DNA of 64,000 nucleotides from a virus, in IMG/VR virus record IMGVR_UViG_3300002123_000001. The stretch is one strand, 5' to 3'. This document shows, in pieces, positions 3,584 to 58,810 of the stretch; position 1 is the first letter of the stretch; every line of letters begins with the position of its first letter. A program made the translations under genes and the position numbers. The notes beneath the pieces are model-generated. The model was given only the letters and a program-made list of their open reading frames with translations. It did not search any database and was not told the origin of the DNA.

Positions 3584-4480
3584 TCAGACCACGGAGATCT
3601 GAACTTCGGATCCCAAGATATACGTCACGTACGGGATCTGGACGATTGTCTTGTCTCGGCGCGACGCACGCAACGTGGTCGTTCCTGCTTTCAACCCCCG
3701 CAGCGACAACTGCGTCTGGTTTGCTGTCAACGACACCACTGTCTTGTCGCTCATCTCCCACGTCACGTCGGACAGCGCCGTCCCCTCGAGGAGGATGCCA
3801 CTCGACGTGCGGACGGATGGGGTGATCGAAAGTGTACTTCCAATCGATAGCTGAGTCGGAAGTGCCTCCAGGTAGGAAATGGAGCTCACCACTGCGAAGA
3901 GCAGATCTGGCAAGTTCACACTCGAAGAGTCCGGTACGGAAACCGTTCTCCCTTGGTCTTCCCAAGCCTCCACTGTCACTGAGTACTTCGCGCATCGGAT
4001 GAGGTCTATACAGGCGTACCCGCTGCCGTCGGTCCGAATCGCCCTCTTGTCAGGGAGGACTCCTGCCTGGTCTAGCAGAACTGGACCGAATGCTCCAGTG
4101 AAGATGATGTCCAGCCCGCTGTGCGCTTGACCCGTCACCGTCCTGAAGTATCCAGACGCCCGGCACAGCAACGGGTCCCTCGAAACAGGTCTGTTGAGCT
4201 CCTGTGCGTACACCTGAAATGAGTTGAGCAAAGGCGCCCCGTTTGGTCCCTCTTGTACAGAGATGAGCTGCGGTTGTTGTACCGATGCCTTGAACTTGTA
4301 GAACCGAAGGCTGTACTCGAGGGTGTACAAAAGGAACCCAGCCCTACCCGCAGAGTCGGTGGTCCCCTCGGTGTAGAGCATGGTCCCACCCTTGTCGTAG
4401 ACGCGTACGAGCACCCCCGACACCGGCTCCCTCGTCTCGGAGTTCAACACGTACACGTCGACTTGCTGGTAGCTGGCCAT
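3584..4480 (-). CDS. virion fibre/decoration-like protein with C-terminal Big_2-like Ig domain, 298 aa
   Basis: C-terminal LSIGSTLSITP...VTWEMSDKTVVSL...GLKAGTTTLRAS resembles bacterial Ig-like group 2; ATGA overlap upstream. Confidence 0.65.
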   Translation of the reverse strand: MASYQQVDVYVLNSETREPVSGVLVRVYDKGGTMLYTEGTTDSAGRAGFLLYTLEYSLRFYKFKASVQQPQLISVQEGPNGAPLLNSFQVYAQELNRPVSRDPLLCRASGYFRTVTGQAHSGLDIIFTGAFGPVLLDQAGVLPDKRAIRTDGSGYACIDLIRCAKYSVTVEAWEDQGRTVSVPDSSSVNLPDLLFAVVSSISYLEALPTQLSIGSTLSITPSVRTSSGILLEGTALSDVTWEMSDKTVVSLTANQTQLSLRGLKAGTTTLRASRRDKTIVQIPYVTYILGSEVQISVV

Positions 4481-5538: not shown

Positions 5539-5760
5539 CTACTCGCTGCCGGTCAGGAATGCCTCGATTTCATCCACCAGCAAAGCGGACGCTTGCTTCG
5601 TGGTCTCATCCTGCAGCCGCTGAGGTCCATTGCGCCCCTTCAGGATGTTCTGCGCAAGCTTGACCTGGTCTTCAAGACGGCGCCGGTGCTTGTCCCGCCA
5701 TTGCTTGGTGGCCACCTCCAGCTCATCCAGAACCTCGTCCCGTCTCTGTTTGTCCGTCAT
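5539..5760 (-). CDS. small charged coiled-coil protein, 73 aa
   Basis: ATG ORF; first gene after the 242-nt non-coding gap. Confidence 0.65.
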   Translation of the reverse strand: MTDKQRRDEVLDELEVATKQWRDKHRRRLEDQVKLAQNILKGRNGPQRLQDETTKQASALLVDEIEAFLTGSE

Positions 5761-5823
5761 TTGTCACCGTAACGCTGAGCGCTGTAAGCCCGACGTTTTG
5801 CGCAGGGCCGTCGTGGTGGGCGA

Positions 5824-5849
5824 GTCTCGGAGTCAGCCGAGCCTGGTAA
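5824..5849. repeat. 26-nt hairpin element, copy 1
   Basis: GTCTCGGAGTCAGCCGAGCCTGGTAA; stem CTCGG/CCGAG. Confidence 0.85.
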
Positions 5850-5902
5850 AGATTGAAAGATTGTGAGCTGGGCGCGGCGCGCGATCGATTCCGAAGTCTG
5901 CA

Positions 5903-5927
5903 GTCCCGGAGACAGCCGGGTCTGGTA
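5903..5927. repeat. 26-nt hairpin element, copy 2
   Basis: GTCCCGGAGACAGCCGGGTCTGGTA; stem CCCGG/CCGGG (compensatory change). Confidence 0.8.
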
Positions 5928-5973
5928 TGTGCTGTGAAGTGGCGAACAAGAGCGGGCCGGGGATGTGGTTCAA

Positions 5974-5999
5974 GTCTCGGAAACAGCCGGGCCTGGTAA
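5974..5999. repeat. 26-nt hairpin element, copy 3
   Basis: GTCTCGGAAACAGCCGGGCCTGGTAA; 3 nt from the rnhB stop codon. Confidence 0.85.
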
Positions 6000-6002
6000 G
6001 TA

Positions 6003-6647
6003 TCAGCAAAACTTGTAGCTGCGGCGATGAATGGGGCACATCCCATGTAGGCGAATGCCCTCTGCGTGCTTTGGGGTACCGTAGCCCTTGTTGCTCTCCC
6101 AGTCGTACTGAGGATAGCACTTGGCGTACTCCAGCATGTACCCGTCACGAGTGGTCTTGGCTACTACGCTAGCCGCGCTCACCGCCGGAACAATAACGTC
6201 TGCCTTCGGCACCAGCACGGGCTTGATGCTGCTCCACGACGGCAAGTTCATCTTGTTGCCGTCCATCACCACCACGTAGGTGGCTTCTGGTGGGAGCGTT
6301 CCAATCAGGTGCTCTGCCACACTTTGGTTCAAGCGGCTGAGGGACACGGTCACGCTCTCCTCATCCAAGAGAGCAGCCTCACAGCTAAGAGTAAAGACGG
6401 GGATGCCTTGCTCCCGAAGGGTTACAACGGCCTTCTCCCTGCGCAGCTCCGTGAGCTTCTTGGAGTCGCGTACTCCGTCGCAGCGCCAGCCGCAGGGGGT
6501 GATGGAACCCCCCACGACTAGCGGCCCAGCCCAGGCGCCGTACCCTACCTCATCAAGCCCGATGATGACGTCTGGACGCACCTCGTGCTCGATTACGTAC
6601 AGCGCCAGGCGCGCTTGGAAGTAGTCCTTACTCGAGGGCTTGCTCAT
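6003..6647 (-). CDS. rnhB: ribonuclease HII
   Basis: GLDEVGYGAWAGPLVV, DSKKL, VVVMDGN, KADVIVPAVSAASVVAKTTRD, GYGT..H motifs of RNase HII. Confidence 0.85.
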   Translation of the reverse strand: MSKPSSKDYFQARLALYVIEHEVRPDVIIGLDEVGYGAWAGPLVVGGSITPCGWRCDGVRDSKKLTELRREKAVVTLREQGIPVFTLSCEAALLDEESVTVSLSRLNQSVAEHLIGTLPPEATYVVVMDGNKMNLPSWSSIKPVLVPKADVIVPAVSAASVVAKTTRDGYMLEYAKCYPQYDWESNKGYGTPKHAEGIRLHGMCPIHRRSYKFC

Positions 6648-9456: not shown

Positions 9457-10221
9457 CTACTTGTACTGCTCGTACTTCTTGATGATGCTGCCCTTCAAGC
9501 GGGACACCTTCGAAGGGCTCAAGCCCAATCGCTGAGCAAGCACCCCAGTGCTGGTGACCGGCATCCCGCCCTGTTGCGGGTACATCAAGTCGTACAGCCG
9601 CTGCTCTTCTGGCCCCAGGCTATGCCGGAGCAACCCAATCACCTCAGACTCGCGCTGCGCCGCGATCGGTACTGGGTCGCTCTCGAAGGGAGTTGATAGA
9701 ACGTCCCTCCGCTGCATCCCCTGAATCTGCTGTATCCTACGCGCCGTGAGCTGCCTTTGCTGCGGCAGCCCAATGTTCATGCGCTGGGCAATCTGCTCGT
9801 GTGAGGGCTCAGCCCCAAGCTCGTCTGACAGCTCCTCTTGTGCAGCCTGAATCTTGCCGATGTAGCCCGCTGGCGTCTCAGCAATGCGCGCCATGTTCTG
9901 ACGCTTCTTGTTCGTGCGGCTCACCCGGCGCAGCTGATTGTGCAAGTGCGTGCTGAACGTGGCCCCACGGTCTGGGTCGTACGTCTTCAACGCGTCGATG
10001 GCCAGATTCATCATGTTCCCACGAAGCCCCACCGCACTGGTCTGCGGCGCCTTGTGGACGTTCTGATGGTGCCTGAACACCGGCTCGAACTGCTGTAGCA
10101 CGGACTTCGTGTTGTCTGGACTTGGGTCCGACTTCCAACGCATCACCAGCTCGTGCTCCGCCTTCGTCCTATCGGCGGCCACCTTCTCCCTCTCTTGGAG
10201 ATATGCGTCGATCGGGTTCAT
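9457..10221 (-). CDS. sigma-70 family RNA polymerase sigma factor, group-3-like, 254 aa
   Basis: Region 2 (YDPDRGATFSTHLHNQLRRVSR), region 3 (LGAEPSHEQIAQRMNI), region 4.2 HTH (STGVLAQRLGLSPSKVSRLKGSIIKKY); ATG 10221. Confidence 0.8.
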   Translation of the reverse strand: MNPIDAYLQEREKVAADRTKAEHELVMRWKSDPSPDNTKSVLQQFEPVFRHHQNVHKAPQTSAVGLRGNMMNLAIDALKTYDPDRGATFSTHLHNQLRRVSRTNKKRQNMARIAETPAGYIGKIQAAQEELSDELGAEPSHEQIAQRMNIGLPQQRQLTARRIQQIQGMQRRDVLSTPFESDPVPIAAQRESEVIGLLRHSLGPEEQRLYDLMYPQQGGMPVTSTGVLAQRLGLSPSKVSRLKGSIIKKYEQYK

Positions 10222-10247
10222 GCTGCTCCGCTTACGAGCGCGCTTCT

Positions 10248-10754
10248 TCAGTGCTCGAGGAGGCGCTTGGTCCGGCTCAGGAGTGTCGGTGCTTCCACCG
10301 GTCTCCGGTTGGCGTTCGCCTGCGGCATCGCATGGCTTGCTTCGTAGTCGCCGGTTGCGGCATGGCTTAGCTGCCCTGCCAGCAGCTTGCGGTCCGCCTC
10401 CTGCGACGGCTTCTTGCCGTCGAAGTGCCGGTTCAGGAACTCCTCGCGCCCTCGTCGGAACTCCTCCAGAACGACGTTCGAGTGGTGTACCGCCGTCCCC
10501 GTCGGGTCGCTCGGCTTCATGTCCGGGTCCCCCCACAGTGCGTCGATGTTTCCTGACGCCCTCCCCTCCGGCTTGGGGTACTGGTCCGGGTTGGTTCCCA
10601 CGGTGCTTCGCCCGTTGTCTCCCGGTGCCTCCACCTCGGCTTGCTTCAGGAAGGCGTACAACTTGTCCGCGTCCTCCTGCGGGTCCGTGAGGGGAAGGCA
10701 GTCGCTCATGCTGCGTCCGTTGTATGCCATGCACGTAGCGTACCACGACCCCAC
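10248..10754 (-). CDS. hypothetical protein, 168 aa, directly upstream of sigma
   Basis: ATG ORF with better composition than the overlapping extension of the sigma ORF. Confidence 0.65.
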   Translation of the reverse strand: MGSWYATCMAYNGRSMSDCLPLTDPQEDADKLYAFLKQAEVEAPGDNGRSTVGTNPDQYPKPEGRASGNIDALWGDPDMKPSDPTGTAVHHSNVVLEEFRRGREEFLNRHFDGKKPSQEADRKLLAGQLSHAATGDYEASHAMPQANANRRPVEAPTLLSRTKRLLEH

Positions 10755-46030: not shown

Positions 46031-46803
46031 CCCCGACTGAACGTAGTTGGTGTACGGTGCCCAGTCACTGAAGTTGCCGCTAATGTTCCTTACCTCCGGC
46101 TAGACGCCCTTCGGAGCGTCCGTCTCACTGTAATGAGGCTAACGTGAAACTGCGCGGCGAGGTCGGGGTGAGACAACCCGCCTAGCTGATACAGTTCCTT
46201 CATCCTCTGCTTCTCTGAGGGCAGCAGAAACACTTTACCGGTAGTAGCAGCTCTACCCTTACCGGCCATGTCGGCCATGTTGTCCGCATGCGTGCCCAGA
46301 AATAAGTGGTCCACTCTTACACACTTGCGGTTGTCACAGGTGTGAAGTACGAACAAGTTGTCCGGCACCAAGCCGTTGATCAACTCGTAGGAGAACACGT
46401 GCGCTCTGACGGTCTTGCCCAGCACCTTGAGAATACCGTATCCCTCATCGTGCAGAGCTCCAGTCCATTCCCAACAACCATCGCTGGACCCTGGGATGTA
46501 TACCTTCTCCCAAAAGCGACACAGGGGTTTACCACACGTGAAGAACTTACCGTGCCGCAGCTGATTAGCGCGTACTAGCTTCGTCTCCCCGCATTGGCAC
46601 GTGCAGTTCCAATAGATGGTGCCGAACTTATCGTTCGGCGCGCGTGAGACCGCCGTAAGAAGACCAAAGGTCTCCCCCGTAATGTCTCGCGTCGTTCCAT
46701 CCTCGTTACGCACTTACCGGTATCCTTCTACCTTGTAGTCTACCAGATGCCCGGGCATCCTCAGTCCCAGAGGCAGCTGGGCCTGGCGAGTATTGTGAAA
46801 TCA
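46031..46803 (-). mobile_element. Free-standing homing-endonuclease insertion between sheath and tube genes
   Basis: HNH gene with its own flanking non-coding DNA and palindrome GATGCCCGGGCATC upstream. Confidence 0.4.
46090..46713 (-). CDS. HNH homing endonuclease with C-terminal HTH, 207 aa
   Basis: CWEWTG...GYG...AHVFSYEL...VLHTCDNRKCVRVDHLFLGTHADN; GTG start. Confidence 0.8.
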   Translation of the reverse strand: MRNEDGTTRDITGETFGLLTAVSRAPNDKFGTIYWNCTCQCGETKLVRANQLRHGKFFTCGKPLCRFWEKVYIPGSSDGCWEWTGALHDEGYGILKVLGKTVRAHVFSYELINGLVPDNLFVLHTCDNRKCVRVDHLFLGTHADNMADMAGKGRAATTGKVFLLPSEKQRMKELYQLGGLSHPDLAAQFHVSLITVRRTLRRASSRR

Positions 46804-47049
46804 TTAGAAACCGCCCCAGTCCACTGCGTCAGGCGACATCTTTCCACCGCCAATCGCCGGGTGTGCCATGCCACCCAAACTCTTGGGCTGGATCAGCTTC
46901 TTTGCCGCTGAAGCCGCCGGCTTGCCCGCCCTCTCCGACCGCACGAGCGTGTCGGCCACGCCATGAAGGCGGGCCAACACCTCGGGTGGAAGGCCGGCGG
47001 CCTTCATCATCTCGTCACGCATCGCGAACATCATTGCGCTAGTGATCAT
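46804..47049 (-). CDS. small protein with N-terminal FAMRDEMMKAAG motif, 81 aa
   Basis: ATG 47049 after AGGAG. Confidence 0.55.
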   Translation of the reverse strand: MITSAMMFAMRDEMMKAAGLPPEVLARLHGVADTLVRSERAGKPAASAAKKLIQPKSLGGMAHPAIGGGKMSPDAVDWGGF

Positions 47050-47095
47050 GGCGGCTCCTGGCATCGATAGCGAGTCAACTCACTGCGCATCACAC

Positions 47096-57647: not shown

Positions 57648-57673
57648 GTCTCGGAGACAGCCGAGCCTGGTAA
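57648..57673. repeat. 26-nt hairpin element, copy 4
   Basis: GTCTCGGAGACAGCCGAGCCTGGTAA, 15 nt after the capsid gene stop. Confidence 0.85.
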
Positions 57674-57688
57674 TCAAGCAACCGGAGA

Positions 57689-58810
57689 TCAGTTGCTGAC
57701 GACCTGCGGGAACTTCAGCCCCTGGTCGACTCGGTTGTTCACCGCGCCCAGAGCCTCCTCATCCACCGGGATGAAGCTGGCACGGAGACCCTCGTTGTCG
57801 TGCTCGGTGGCGTCCGCCGAGTAGAGCTCGACCTTCCGGACCGCGGCGATGTTGATCACCGACATGGCGATGTCCTCCCACGACTGGAAGGTGATCATGT
57901 TCGCCACCTTGTCGATGTAGAACTTCGTCTGGTTCAGGACGTAGAACTTGCCGAAGAACTCGGGCGACGTGAAGAAGTACATGTTGCCTGGGCGCAAGAT
58001 GTCTGTCTTCACCGTGCGGACGAACGGGCGCCCCAGCAGGGTGTTGTACTTGTACCCGTCGACCGTGGTCTCCGACTGGATGCGGTCGCCCTGGTCCTCC
58101 ACCGTCCAAGACAGCTGGTCGTCCCAGTCCACTTCGGTTACGAGCCACCGCTCACAGCGGAGCCGGTTGCCGTCCAGGAGCTTGAACCCCGAGACGATGT
58201 CCCGCCTCTGCAGCGGACGAACCACGGCGTCATCCGTGAGAGCCACGCGCGCCAGCTCGCCCTTGCGAACGCTGAACTCCACGAGGCCGCCCGCGCCGAT
58301 CGAGGTGGCGTTGAGAATCGGCGCCGCAGCGACGCCGTTCGCTTCCGCCTGAAGCGCCTGGCACGCCGCCTCGATGTGGAACGTGAACTCCCGGTCCTCG
58401 ATCTCCTGGATGTCCTTCACCGAGTTCTCCTCGATGACCTTGGTGATGGGCATATCGTAGGCGAGGAGCTCCTGCTCGGTCTTCTGGAAGACCTCGCTGG
58501 AGATCGTGAAGAACGCCACCTCGGCACGCGGCCCGCGGATGAACCGCGCCGTGGGCTGGCCACGGAAGGAAAGCGCCATCGCCCGGCTCCGGGGCTCGAC
58601 GTTCACGATCTTGACCAGAGTGTCGTGCCGCGTGCTGACCTGGCAGTCTGCACGCGTCACCTGCTCCGGCGGGACCAGCTTGCGCACGTAGCAGACCTCA
58701 CGGAGCTTGTCGCGGATGTACGACCCTCCGAACTGCGCCAGCTTCTCCTTGCCACCCGGCTCACTCAGCCGAGTGTTGAACAGCTCATTGACCTGTCGGC
58801 CGCTTGCCAT
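57689..58810 (-). CDS. major capsid protein (HK97-fold-like), 373 aa
   Basis: Size, position after scaffold- and decoration-like genes, strong SD GAGGAG, C-terminal LLGRPFV...MYFFTSPEFFGKFYVL...ITFQSWEDIAMSV pattern. Confidence 0.6.
   Translation of the reverse strand: MASGRQVNELFNTRLSEPGGKEKLAQFGGSYIRDKLREVCYVRKLVPPEQVTRADCQVSTRHDTLVKIVNVEPRSRAMALSFRGQPTARFIRGPRAEVAFFTISSEVFQKTEQELLAYDMPITKVIEENSVKDIQEIEDREFTFHIEAACQALQAEANGVAAAPILNATSIGAGGLVEFSVRKGELARVALTDDAVVRPLQRRDIVSGFKLLDGNRLRCERWLVTEVDWDDQLSWTVEDQGDRIQSETTVDGYKYNTLLGRPFVRTVKTDILRPGNMYFFTSPEFFGKFYVLNQTKFYIDKVANMITFQSWEDIAMSVINIAAVRKVELYSADATEHDNEGLRASFIPVDEEALGAVNNRVDQGLKFPQVVSN

Follow-up and report, generated by a model that had tools for sequence, protein, structure and literature searches.

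Type V CRISPR (short palindromic repeats, clustered and regularly interspaced) systems use CRISPR RNAs (crRNAs) in which the structured 3' end of the repeat stands directly before the spacer; the crRNA of Cas12a carries a pseudoknot as its 5' handle, and the repeats of Cas12j/CasPhi end in a hairpin followed by AC. TnpB nucleases are served by an omega-RNA, a long scaffold of about 100-250 nt that overlaps the 3' end of tnpB and occurs in one copy per element. Here we describe a short repeat found five times in a 64,000-nt stretch of virus DNA (IMG/VR record IMGVR_UViG_3300002123_000001), called the window below, which corresponds to roughly positions 83,946-147,945 of Logan SRR3990168_10907, a genome of ~191 kb assembled in four samples. 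In other phages this repeat family is arrayed beside a gene for a small, phage-borne, TnpB-like nuclease that is Cas12-like and RuvC-intact. Judged by sequence, the five copies are very likely members of this CRISPR-type repeat family; that they are CRISPR-type repeat units, three in a mini-array and two solitary, acting through an RNA handle is probable.

The family resembles type V CRISPR systems in having a repeat of about 36 nt with a 3' stem or pseudoknot before the spacer, arrays co-oriented with a RuvC nuclease of TnpB ancestry, and no adaptation genes near the phage-borne nuclease-array versions. It differs in that its nuclease is much smaller (441-580 aa) and can be assigned to no named Cas12 subtype, in that its repeat sequence is in no Rfam family, and in that many of its units are dispersed singly. 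With the omega-RNA systems it shares a TnpB-family nuclease for which the guide would lie 3' of a structured RNA, and its dispersal by insertion recalls transposon-linked homing; however, its 36-nt units are repeated with unique spacers, and no TnpA gene accompanies them.

Two sets of virus-borne repeats are also comparable. Cas12r of the Thermus 'Lalka' phages, found in thermophiles, is a 564-aa protein with 29-bp repeats that uses a crRNA only and is thought to serve in mobile-element conflicts (bioRxiv 10.64898/2026.04.20.719267). As in the family described here, a phage-encoded TnpB-like nuclease is followed by a short array, and the Cas12r repeats are partly degenerate; however, there is no sign of homology beyond the TnpB fold, and dispersed solitary repeats are not reported for Cas12r (bioRxiv 10.64898/2026.04.20.719267). 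Solitary repeat units and mini-arrays have been described in viruses, where the known solitary units mimic the CRISPR repeats of the host itself and often lie just after a promoter (PMC10651486). Copies 4 and 5 of the window are likewise single intergenic matches to a CRISPR repeat, each more than 100 bp from any other repeat and away from cas genes, and copies 1-3 form a mini-array in a virus; the differences are that the matching system is here phage-borne, that no promoter is seen and that the units lie inside operons, inhibition being putative (PMC10651486). Virus-borne CRISPR-type repeats, mini-arrays and solitary units are thus already known; those of the window are tied to a family of compact TnpB-like nucleases that is apparently undescribed.

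Five copies of the repeat in the window

A preliminary description of the window had reported three tandem copies of a hairpin element and a fourth copy at 57648-57673. All four were recovered with a covariance model of the repeat family, built from 46 copies and run with filters off over all 64 kb, which gave exactly five matches, all on the plus strand, at 39.3-48.3 bits (E 7e-12 to 3e-9); the best match other than these copies reached 12.8 bits (E 0.17). Scanning with the 26-nt consensus at three or fewer mismatches returned 5824-5849, 5974-5999 and 57648-57673, where shuffles lead one to expect 0.00. A looser scan added copy 2 at 5903-5928 (four differences from the consensus) and a fifth copy, absent from the preliminary description, at 46764-46789 (GTCCCAGAGGCAGCTGGGCCTGGCGA, stem CCCAG/CTGGG). 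Copies 1-4 keep their earlier numbers here. Their stems, given as CTCGG/CCGAG in copies 1 and 4, CCCGG/CCGGG in copy 2 and CTCGG/CCGGG in copy 3, read back as stated, and the copy spacings of 79 and 71 nt, the size of the gap (242 nt, 5761-6002) and the identity of the upstream neighbour as rnhB (RNase HII, Pfam E 3e-28) are likewise correct. Covariance-model searching, which had been proposed as a check, thus recovers the fifth copy as well.

Nearly all genes of the window lie on the minus strand in a crude gene map, so the gene-strand reading of the element is ...TACCAGGCYCGGCTGNCTCCGRGAC. The units (those of the mini-array in the order of transcription) and the features that bear on them are as follows.

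5974-6009, minus strand: repeat 1 of the mini-array (copy 3), conserved part 5974-6002; 41.6 bits
5939-5973, minus strand: spacer 1, 35 nt, TTGAACCACATCCCCGGCCCGCTCTTGTTCGCCAC, between repeats 1 and 2
5903-5938, minus strand: repeat 2 (copy 2), CAG-A-CCCGG-CUG-UCU-CCGGG-AC; 48.3 bits
5860-5902, minus strand: spacer 2, 43 nt, TGCAGACTTCGGAATCGATCGCGCGCCGCGCCCAGCTCACAAT, between repeats 2 and 3
5824-5859, minus strand: repeat 3 (copy 1), CAG-G-CUCGG-CUG-ACU-CCGAG-AC; 44.1 bits
5761-6002, minus strand: 242-nt block holding the mini-array, between the RNase HII gene (6003-6647) and an open reading frame (ORF) of 73 aa (5539-5760)
46764-46799, minus strand: solitary repeat (copy 5), CAG-G-CCCAG-CUG-CCU-CUGGG-AC; 43.3 bits
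57648-57683, minus strand: solitary repeat (copy 4), CAG-G-CUCGG-CUG-UCU-CCGAG-AC; 39.3 bits
57601-57632, minus strand: terminator-like hairpin and U-run after copy 4, conserved across the phage family in an alignment

Copies 1-3 have the form of a CRISPR array, with three direct repeats 71 and 79 nt apart and unique spacers of 35 and 43 nt. The RNase HII gene flanks the mini-array upstream, the 36-nt frame of repeat 1 overlapping its stop codon (6003-6005), and 63 nt separate repeat 3 from the ATG (5760) of the 73-aa ORF. Copy 5 lies 14 nt past the stop of ORF 46804-47064 and 50 nt ahead of an HNH endonuclease gene (46090-46713). Copy 4 is preceded by a capsid-like gene (57689-58810) and sits between the stop codon of this major capsid gene (57689-57691) and the conserved terminator of the same gene. 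The terminator is part of the capsid gene and not of the repeat; it would give an RNA derived from the repeat a defined 3' end.

Arrays of the repeat beside a TnpB-like nuclease gene in other phages

A degenerate pattern search found copies in ~20 metagenome contigs and at least 11 copies in one 44.8-kb IMG/VR contig. The repeat-bearing contigs have a G+C content of 59-73%, and the extended gene-strand consensus, 36 nt, is CCAACAACACCTACCAGGCCCGGCTGTCTCCGGGAC. Near-identical 36-nt units form arrays of 2 to ~14 repeats in at least 12 metagenomic phage contigs. Their spacers are unique and of 35-41 nt, and the repeat-to-repeat distance has a median of 73 nt, with 39 out of 46 values within 71-77 nt; the window intervals of 71 and 79 nt fit this pattern. 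The repeat sequence is absent from the Rfam families, from the papers of the literature library searched and from the cultured phages in the GenBank collection. Among 185,579 reference genomes the sole array found lies on a 2.4-kb contig binned into a metagenome-assembled genome (MAG), with the nuclease gene on the same contig.

The arrays begin a few nucleotides past, or adjoin, a gene for a TnpB-family protein of 441-580 aa. In the locus numbered L010 (other loci are numbered likewise) a 496-aa protein with matches to PF07282 (Cas12f1-like TNB, E 1.5e-13) and HTH_OrfB_IS605 ends 4 nt ahead of a three-repeat array. The arrays of L003, L010 (twice), L021, L030, L031 (whose array continues into L008) and L039 stand directly downstream of genes for homologues of this protein (62-100% identity), and distant homologues (35-60% identity) adjoin arrays in L057, L058, L062, L063 and L065; 11 repeats follow the nuclease gene in L063 and 13 in L065. 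The RuvC motifs GIDVG, AVEDL and D-NAARN and the zinc ribbon are retained, so that the D/E/D residues and zinc ribbon of a type V effector are present in nucleases of these other contigs, no window protein being involved. Against NCBIfam guided_TnpB the proteins score 70-97 bits, under the cut-off of 100; PADLOC gives weak Cas12f/Cas12u matches only; and the best PDB matches are to TnpB and Cas12f, at E 1e-5 to 1e-7 with the RuvC motifs aligned. By these comparisons the nuclease is a divergent member of the TnpB family, below every curated cut-off. An exhaustive HMMER search returned at least 57 representative clusters (50% identity) at E 1e-30 or better, all metagenomic, and most of the nucleases are of 441-470 aa. 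Nuclease-bearing phages also hold dispersed solitary units, as seen in the IMG/VR contig and at ~792 and ~7391 of L063.

Some arrays and copies depart from this pattern. In L061 (5266-5365) the repeat past a more distant nuclease (35% identity) is another one, AGATAGAAACGACGGTGCTCGGACC, 25 nt long and spaced at 74 nt. This suggests a sister system with its own repeat, as would be expected if protein and repeat co-evolve. In IMG/VR contig 3300037504_000456 (L003 3210-3633 and L001 2214-2914) the spacers of the array past the nuclease gene are irregular and very short (8-58 nt), and those of a second cluster are duplicated; relative to the regular arrays elsewhere, these look degenerate or rearranged. 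Directly after the final repeat in several arrays, and after some of the solitary units, comes CGGGAC, a second copy of the repeat's last six bases (L002 3614, L002 7423, L010 365, L012 4129). One repeat copy, at L008 1806-1830, falls within a 1498-aa ORF that has a tyrosine-integrase domain; the copy is antisense to this ORF and in its 3' part, and the codon-position G+C signal runs through it. It fits no reading considered here. Other matches to the repeat were set aside as chance: four Gordonia matches (E 0.2), one inside an ORF rich in G+C at third codon positions in a Burkholderiales MAG (L037), those in L004-L007, and most of the genome hits.

The repeat as a pseudoknot, most likely on the gene strand

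The preliminary description had drawn the element as a simple 5-bp hairpin and, from compensatory stem changes, had argued for selection on a folded nucleic acid. That argument was right and is now better supported, and the 5-bp helix stands, but the simple hairpin gives way to a pseudoknot of two helices. Variant repeats revealed the second helix, in which the loop triplet CAG pairs with the CTG after the stem; the variant 3-bp helices are CTG/CAG (L002, L058), AAG/CTT (L057, L062), and GAG/CTC and GAG/CTT (L062). On the gene strand the order CAG-G-CCCGG-CUG-UCU-CCGGG-AC is that of an H-type pseudoknot whose two helices have 3 and 5 bp and whose loops have 1, 0 and 3 nt. It occupies the last 22 nt of each unit, with CAG/CUG as the 3-bp helix and CCCGG/CCGGG as the 5-bp helix, and then AC.

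Repeats belonging to divergent nucleases covary (AAG/CUU, GAG/CUC, CUG/CAG, CCUGG/CCAGG), and the structural support comes from covariation over ~80 copies in other contigs. When 52 distinct gene-strand copies are aligned without gaps, pairing holds in 98.3% of cells, and five of the eight pairs change on both sides (31 cells), so that the covariation persists once more copies are aligned. None of 500 shuffles reached the observed covariation score, and control pairings with the 3' partner slid by 1-3 columns gave 53% or less. On this comparative evidence the last 22 nt form a pseudoknot, with a layout that is, by analogy, that of the type V crRNA 5' handle. In the window the 3-bp helix, the AC tail and an upstream CAAY motif are kept in all five copies, and all five pairs of the 5-bp helix in four (copies 1, 2, 4 and 5); repeat 1 (copy 3) reads CAG-G-CCCGG-CUG-UUU-CCGAG-AC, with a single C-A mismatch in the 5-bp helix. 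Compensatory changes keep the pairing in individual window copies despite sequence drift, which argues for continued selection on the fold.

The strand that folds is most likely the gene (minus) strand and not the plus strand. The arrays are co-oriented with the nuclease genes at nearly all loci, the upstream array of L057 being the exception, and in the 52-copy alignment there are eight G-U cells on the gene strand and ~3 cells that wobble only on the opposite strand. Under the stereochemistry usual for pseudoknots, a 1-nt loop can span the deep groove of a 5-bp helix but not its shallow groove, which the opposite strand would need to cross. If the minus strand folds, copy 3 is a slightly defective copy: of the strand effect pointed out for it earlier, the C-A mismatch on the minus strand applies, and folding on the plus strand does not.

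Spacers

Spacer 1 and spacer 2 had no exact 20-nt match in IMG/VR, and neither matched any of the loci fetched for this analysis. Two array spacers of other phages likewise had no exact 20-nt protospacer match in IMG/VR, the protospacer search covering exact matches in this one collection. Two array spacers of nuclease-bearing phages partly match their own genomes. The spacer at L008 227-262 matches 413-437, in the gene just past the array, over 25 of 25 nt, with the 11 repeat-proximal nt unmatched, and the spacer at L001 2239-2270, which is duplicated in its array, matches 2059-2088 on the opposite strand at 27 of 30 nt. Such self-matches may have arisen by recombination, or because the version of the gene in a relative is the target.

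Recent insertion of the units in one phage lineage, at two of three sites

IMG/VR contains 250 relatives of the window phage's capsid protein. Identity is 70-100% in the 80 loci retained, and many of the relatives lie on contigs of 184-196 kb. Run over these 80 loci (1.14 Mb), the repeat model found the element only in L066, whose capsid protein is identical. In an alignment of seven relatives at the capsid site the terminator hairpin is common to all, and a repeat block of ~40 nt, lodged between the stop codon and the conserved terminator, is present only in the window and L066. The mini-array site was compared with L146 (RNase HII 64% identical) and with L147 (RNase HII 41% identical; a 190-kb contig with the same sigma-factor gene upstream), both with conserved gene order. 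The model found no repeats in either; in both, a homologue of the 73-aa ORF directly follows RNase HII, and the ~240-nt block is found only in the window lineage. By this comparison the units are recent insertions in one lineage of a large, widespread family of ~190-kb phages, as shown at two of the three window sites, and not core signals, because the relatives are without the element at both sites compared. Conservation in relatives, proposed earlier as a test, therefore extends to L066 at the capsid site and not to the mini-array in L146 and L147, while unrelated contigs carry the element. No homologues of window proteins were found in the nuclease-bearing loci.

Proposed function of the units and where a nuclease may be encoded

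In the reading we prefer, the copies would be transcribed on the minus strand within the surrounding operons, one of them in the 3' untranslated region (UTR) of the mRNA for the capsid protein. In each unit the final 22 nt would fold as the H-type pseudoknot that covariation supports, in the layout of a type V crRNA 5' handle; a nuclease of the TnpB-like family would bind this handle and probably cut it out, and the sequence 3' of it would then occupy the guide position. Copy 4 would yield a small RNA ending at the capsid terminator. Among the roles offered by the preliminary description, a processing signal and an RNA hairpin operator come nearest to this; a CRISPR connection was absent from its list.

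Several results weigh against this reading. The folding energy of the hairpins is no better than that of shuffles (z-scores -1.2 to +1.0). No promoter was predicted next to the units with the -35/-10 consensus (sigma-70-type). The window repeats diverge from each other more than is usual for a working array, and the array is of minimum size. Copy 3 carries the C-A mismatch in its 5-bp helix and the L066 copy has a G-to-A change at an otherwise invariant pseudoknot base, which together hint at some relaxation of constraint. Guide function is putative across the whole family, since no protospacer was found for the window spacers or for the two spacers of other phages. Finally, no nuclease of this family and no canonical TnpB was found by tblastn or with family and canonical TnpB hidden Markov models (HMMs) in the 82 kb searched of the ~191-kb genome (the window, 10 kb to its left, L051, and 8 kb to its right, L055). 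None of 36 family members from a word-indexed search, or of 30 representatives checked from the exhaustive search, whose representative library hides cluster members, comes from a contig of more than 71 kb.

Scanning the large ORFs crudely for RuvC motifs gave nothing either, and the 1.14 Mb of relatives' sequence held no TnpB-like gene. An associated cas or effector gene is thus missing from 82 kb of the window phage and present in at least 12 other repeat-bearing contigs. Solitary units occur in nuclease-bearing phages too, so the pattern in the window does not by itself show that a nuclease is absent. We put somewhat below even the chance that the nuclease is encoded in the remaining 109 kb of the window phage genome. 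That it is supplied by a co-infecting phage, the units being decoys or hijacking guides, is a real possibility, if on balance doubtful, and that there is no nuclease and the units are inert is unlikely. The solitary units may also spread as guide-encoding homing modules.

An unexplained hairpin leads in this way to an apparently undescribed family of phage-borne, putatively RNA-guided nucleases. With a short pseudoknotted repeat and possibly no trans-activating crRNA, these proteins may be of interest as very compact editors. Single units and mini-arrays inserted in the operons of unrelated phages make the dispersal of CRISPR-type repeats within and between phage genomes testable, and likewise whether phages aim RNA mimics at the CRISPR systems of other phages. 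For annotation, covarying intergenic hairpin repeats in a phage need not be promoters or terminators.

Alternative explanations

The strongest alternative is that the large phage has no nuclease of its own and mimics the guide-RNA handle of rival phages, expressing it from its own operons; a co-infecting phage with the full system would then have its TnpB-like nuclease sequestered by the repeat RNAs, and so disarmed, or turned elsewhere. We regard this as rather unlikely. The nuclease is absent from the 82 kb examined, and the database family members checked point the same way, but the search covered 82 kb of 191 kb. The full systems are phage-borne, the only array in the reference genomes being the one on the short MAG-binned contig, while no evidence places both kinds of phage in one host or one sample. 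Copies 4 and 5 are solitary, intergenic and away from cas genes, which matches the published definition (PMC10651486), yet nuclease-bearing phages have dispersed solitary units as well, so that no decoy is implied. The position of copy 4 in the capsid mRNA 3' UTR, before a terminator, would suit an abundant small RNA, and pairing is kept in each copy by compensatory changes despite drift; a promoter directly upstream of the units was not found. If true, this would be an RNA anti-CRISPR in phage-versus-phage conflict, a counterpart of the solitary-repeat RNA anti-CRISPRs.

It is improbable that the units are functionless remnants that arrived by recombination with a nuclease-bearing phage or by insertion through its machinery. 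Their insertion is recent and lineage-specific, their spacers have no matches, and the copy 3 mismatch and the L066 substitution at an invariant base would suit decay. In copies 1, 4 and 5, however, the departures from the consensus are compensatory and affect both partners of a pair, which speaks for ongoing selection on the fold; moreover, the 3-bp helix, the AC tail and the CAAY motif are kept in five of five copies, as is the transcribed orientation.

Transcription signals, whether promoters read by a phage RNA polymerase or by the sigma factor of the phage (9457-10746), a template-strand hairpin of the N4 type, terminators or 3'-end signals, are a very improbable explanation, and the promoter cluster offered by the preliminary description falls with them. 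The units are intergenic and co-oriented with genes, three stand where one module borders another, a sigma-70-family protein is encoded in the genome, one copy in L029 ends 14 nt ahead of a start codon, and two wobble copies seen early lay on the template (plus) strand. With more copies, however, the wobble count favours the gene strand, where alone a pseudoknot of this geometry is sterically possible. Relatives both close and distant that share gene order and sigma factor are without the element at the two matching sites, there are only five copies in 64 kb, no -35/-10 match or promoter consensus was found and no U-run follows the element, and the regular arrays next to a TnpB-like gene, with their unique spacers, are left unexplained by a promoter. 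The window has no giant virion RNA polymerase, its largest ORF having 1242 aa and no polymerase signature. Lineage-specific insertion excludes the promoter, terminator, origin and packaging-site readings more firmly than do missing consensus matches.

Individual candidates were also rejected. The promoter readings tried (a T7-like box, an extracytoplasmic-function-like AAC-N16-TCT, sigma-54 spacing and the N4 type) fell to the TnpB-like gene beside the arrays and to the relatives that are without the element. For a hairpin promoter of the N4 type the loop is 6 nt and not 3, the wobbles and the pseudoknot geometry favour the other strand, and the giant polymerase is missing. A sigma-70-type or phage-polymerase promoter has no consensus here, and relatives sharing gene order and sigma gene are without the element. 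An intrinsic terminator was rejected on the lack of a T-run after any copy, the terminator past copy 4 being a separate hairpin conserved in the family. A tRNA-like element, ribozyme or known RNA family was set aside (no tRNA genes by ARAGORN; no Rfam match at gathering or E-value threshold), as was a coding repeat, the periods not being multiples of 3.

Repeats acting as DNA, namely origin iterons, a packaging or partition site, or ends or miniature derivatives of an IS200/IS605-type transposon, have hardly any likelihood: the copies are in tandem in a non-coding gap, they behave as insertions, and the associated protein is TnpB-like, IS200/IS605 elements using DNA end hairpins, but three separate loci in one genome and relatives without the element at two matching sites misfit an origin or packaging site (the iteron, origin or packaging role suggested earlier), two interleaved helices that covary indicate a folded single strand and not duplex recognition, the element is elsewhere arrayed with spacers beside a nuclease gene, no TnpA gene was found near the arrays, and transposon ends do not form arrays of up to ~14 units with a 73-nt period and unique spacers. 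An omega-RNA or IS200-IS605 end had also been considered specifically and was dropped, there being no tnpB in the window and no TnpA domain in the gene tables of the loci, and the units being short and arrayed with unique spacers.

Other features of the window phage and of the loci compared

Most proteins of the window phage have no Pfam, PHROG or PDB match, and its large proteins have no sequence match in these three collections; ORF 3584-4480 has a weak CarboxypepD_reg/Ig-like match, in support of the putative fibre-gene block that the preliminary description placed next to the gap. A 429-aa ORF on the minus strand (9457-10746) contains a sigma-70 region 3 domain at 31.7 bits, above the Pfam threshold of 25.3. 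A sigma factor is therefore among the products of the phage, and L147 has a homologue at the same position. The HNH gene near copy 5 (46090-46713, minus strand) encodes an HNH_3 endonuclease with a C-terminal helix-turn-helix, resembling a free-standing homing endonuclease. With the capsid proteins of Salmonella phage Arash and of the Vibrio phages D69/D181/D148, that of the window phage shares 26-28% identity.

In L008 (1200-1340), a run of short repeats like GGGACACC lies in non-coding sequence between a rho-independent terminator and an ORF of the FmdB zinc-ribbon type; it has the look of an array that binds a protein. Immediately to the right of the window, an ORF of 1222 aa beside the terminase gene (L055 5362-9030) has a faint LAGLIDADG match and may be an intein-containing portal gene or another structural gene.

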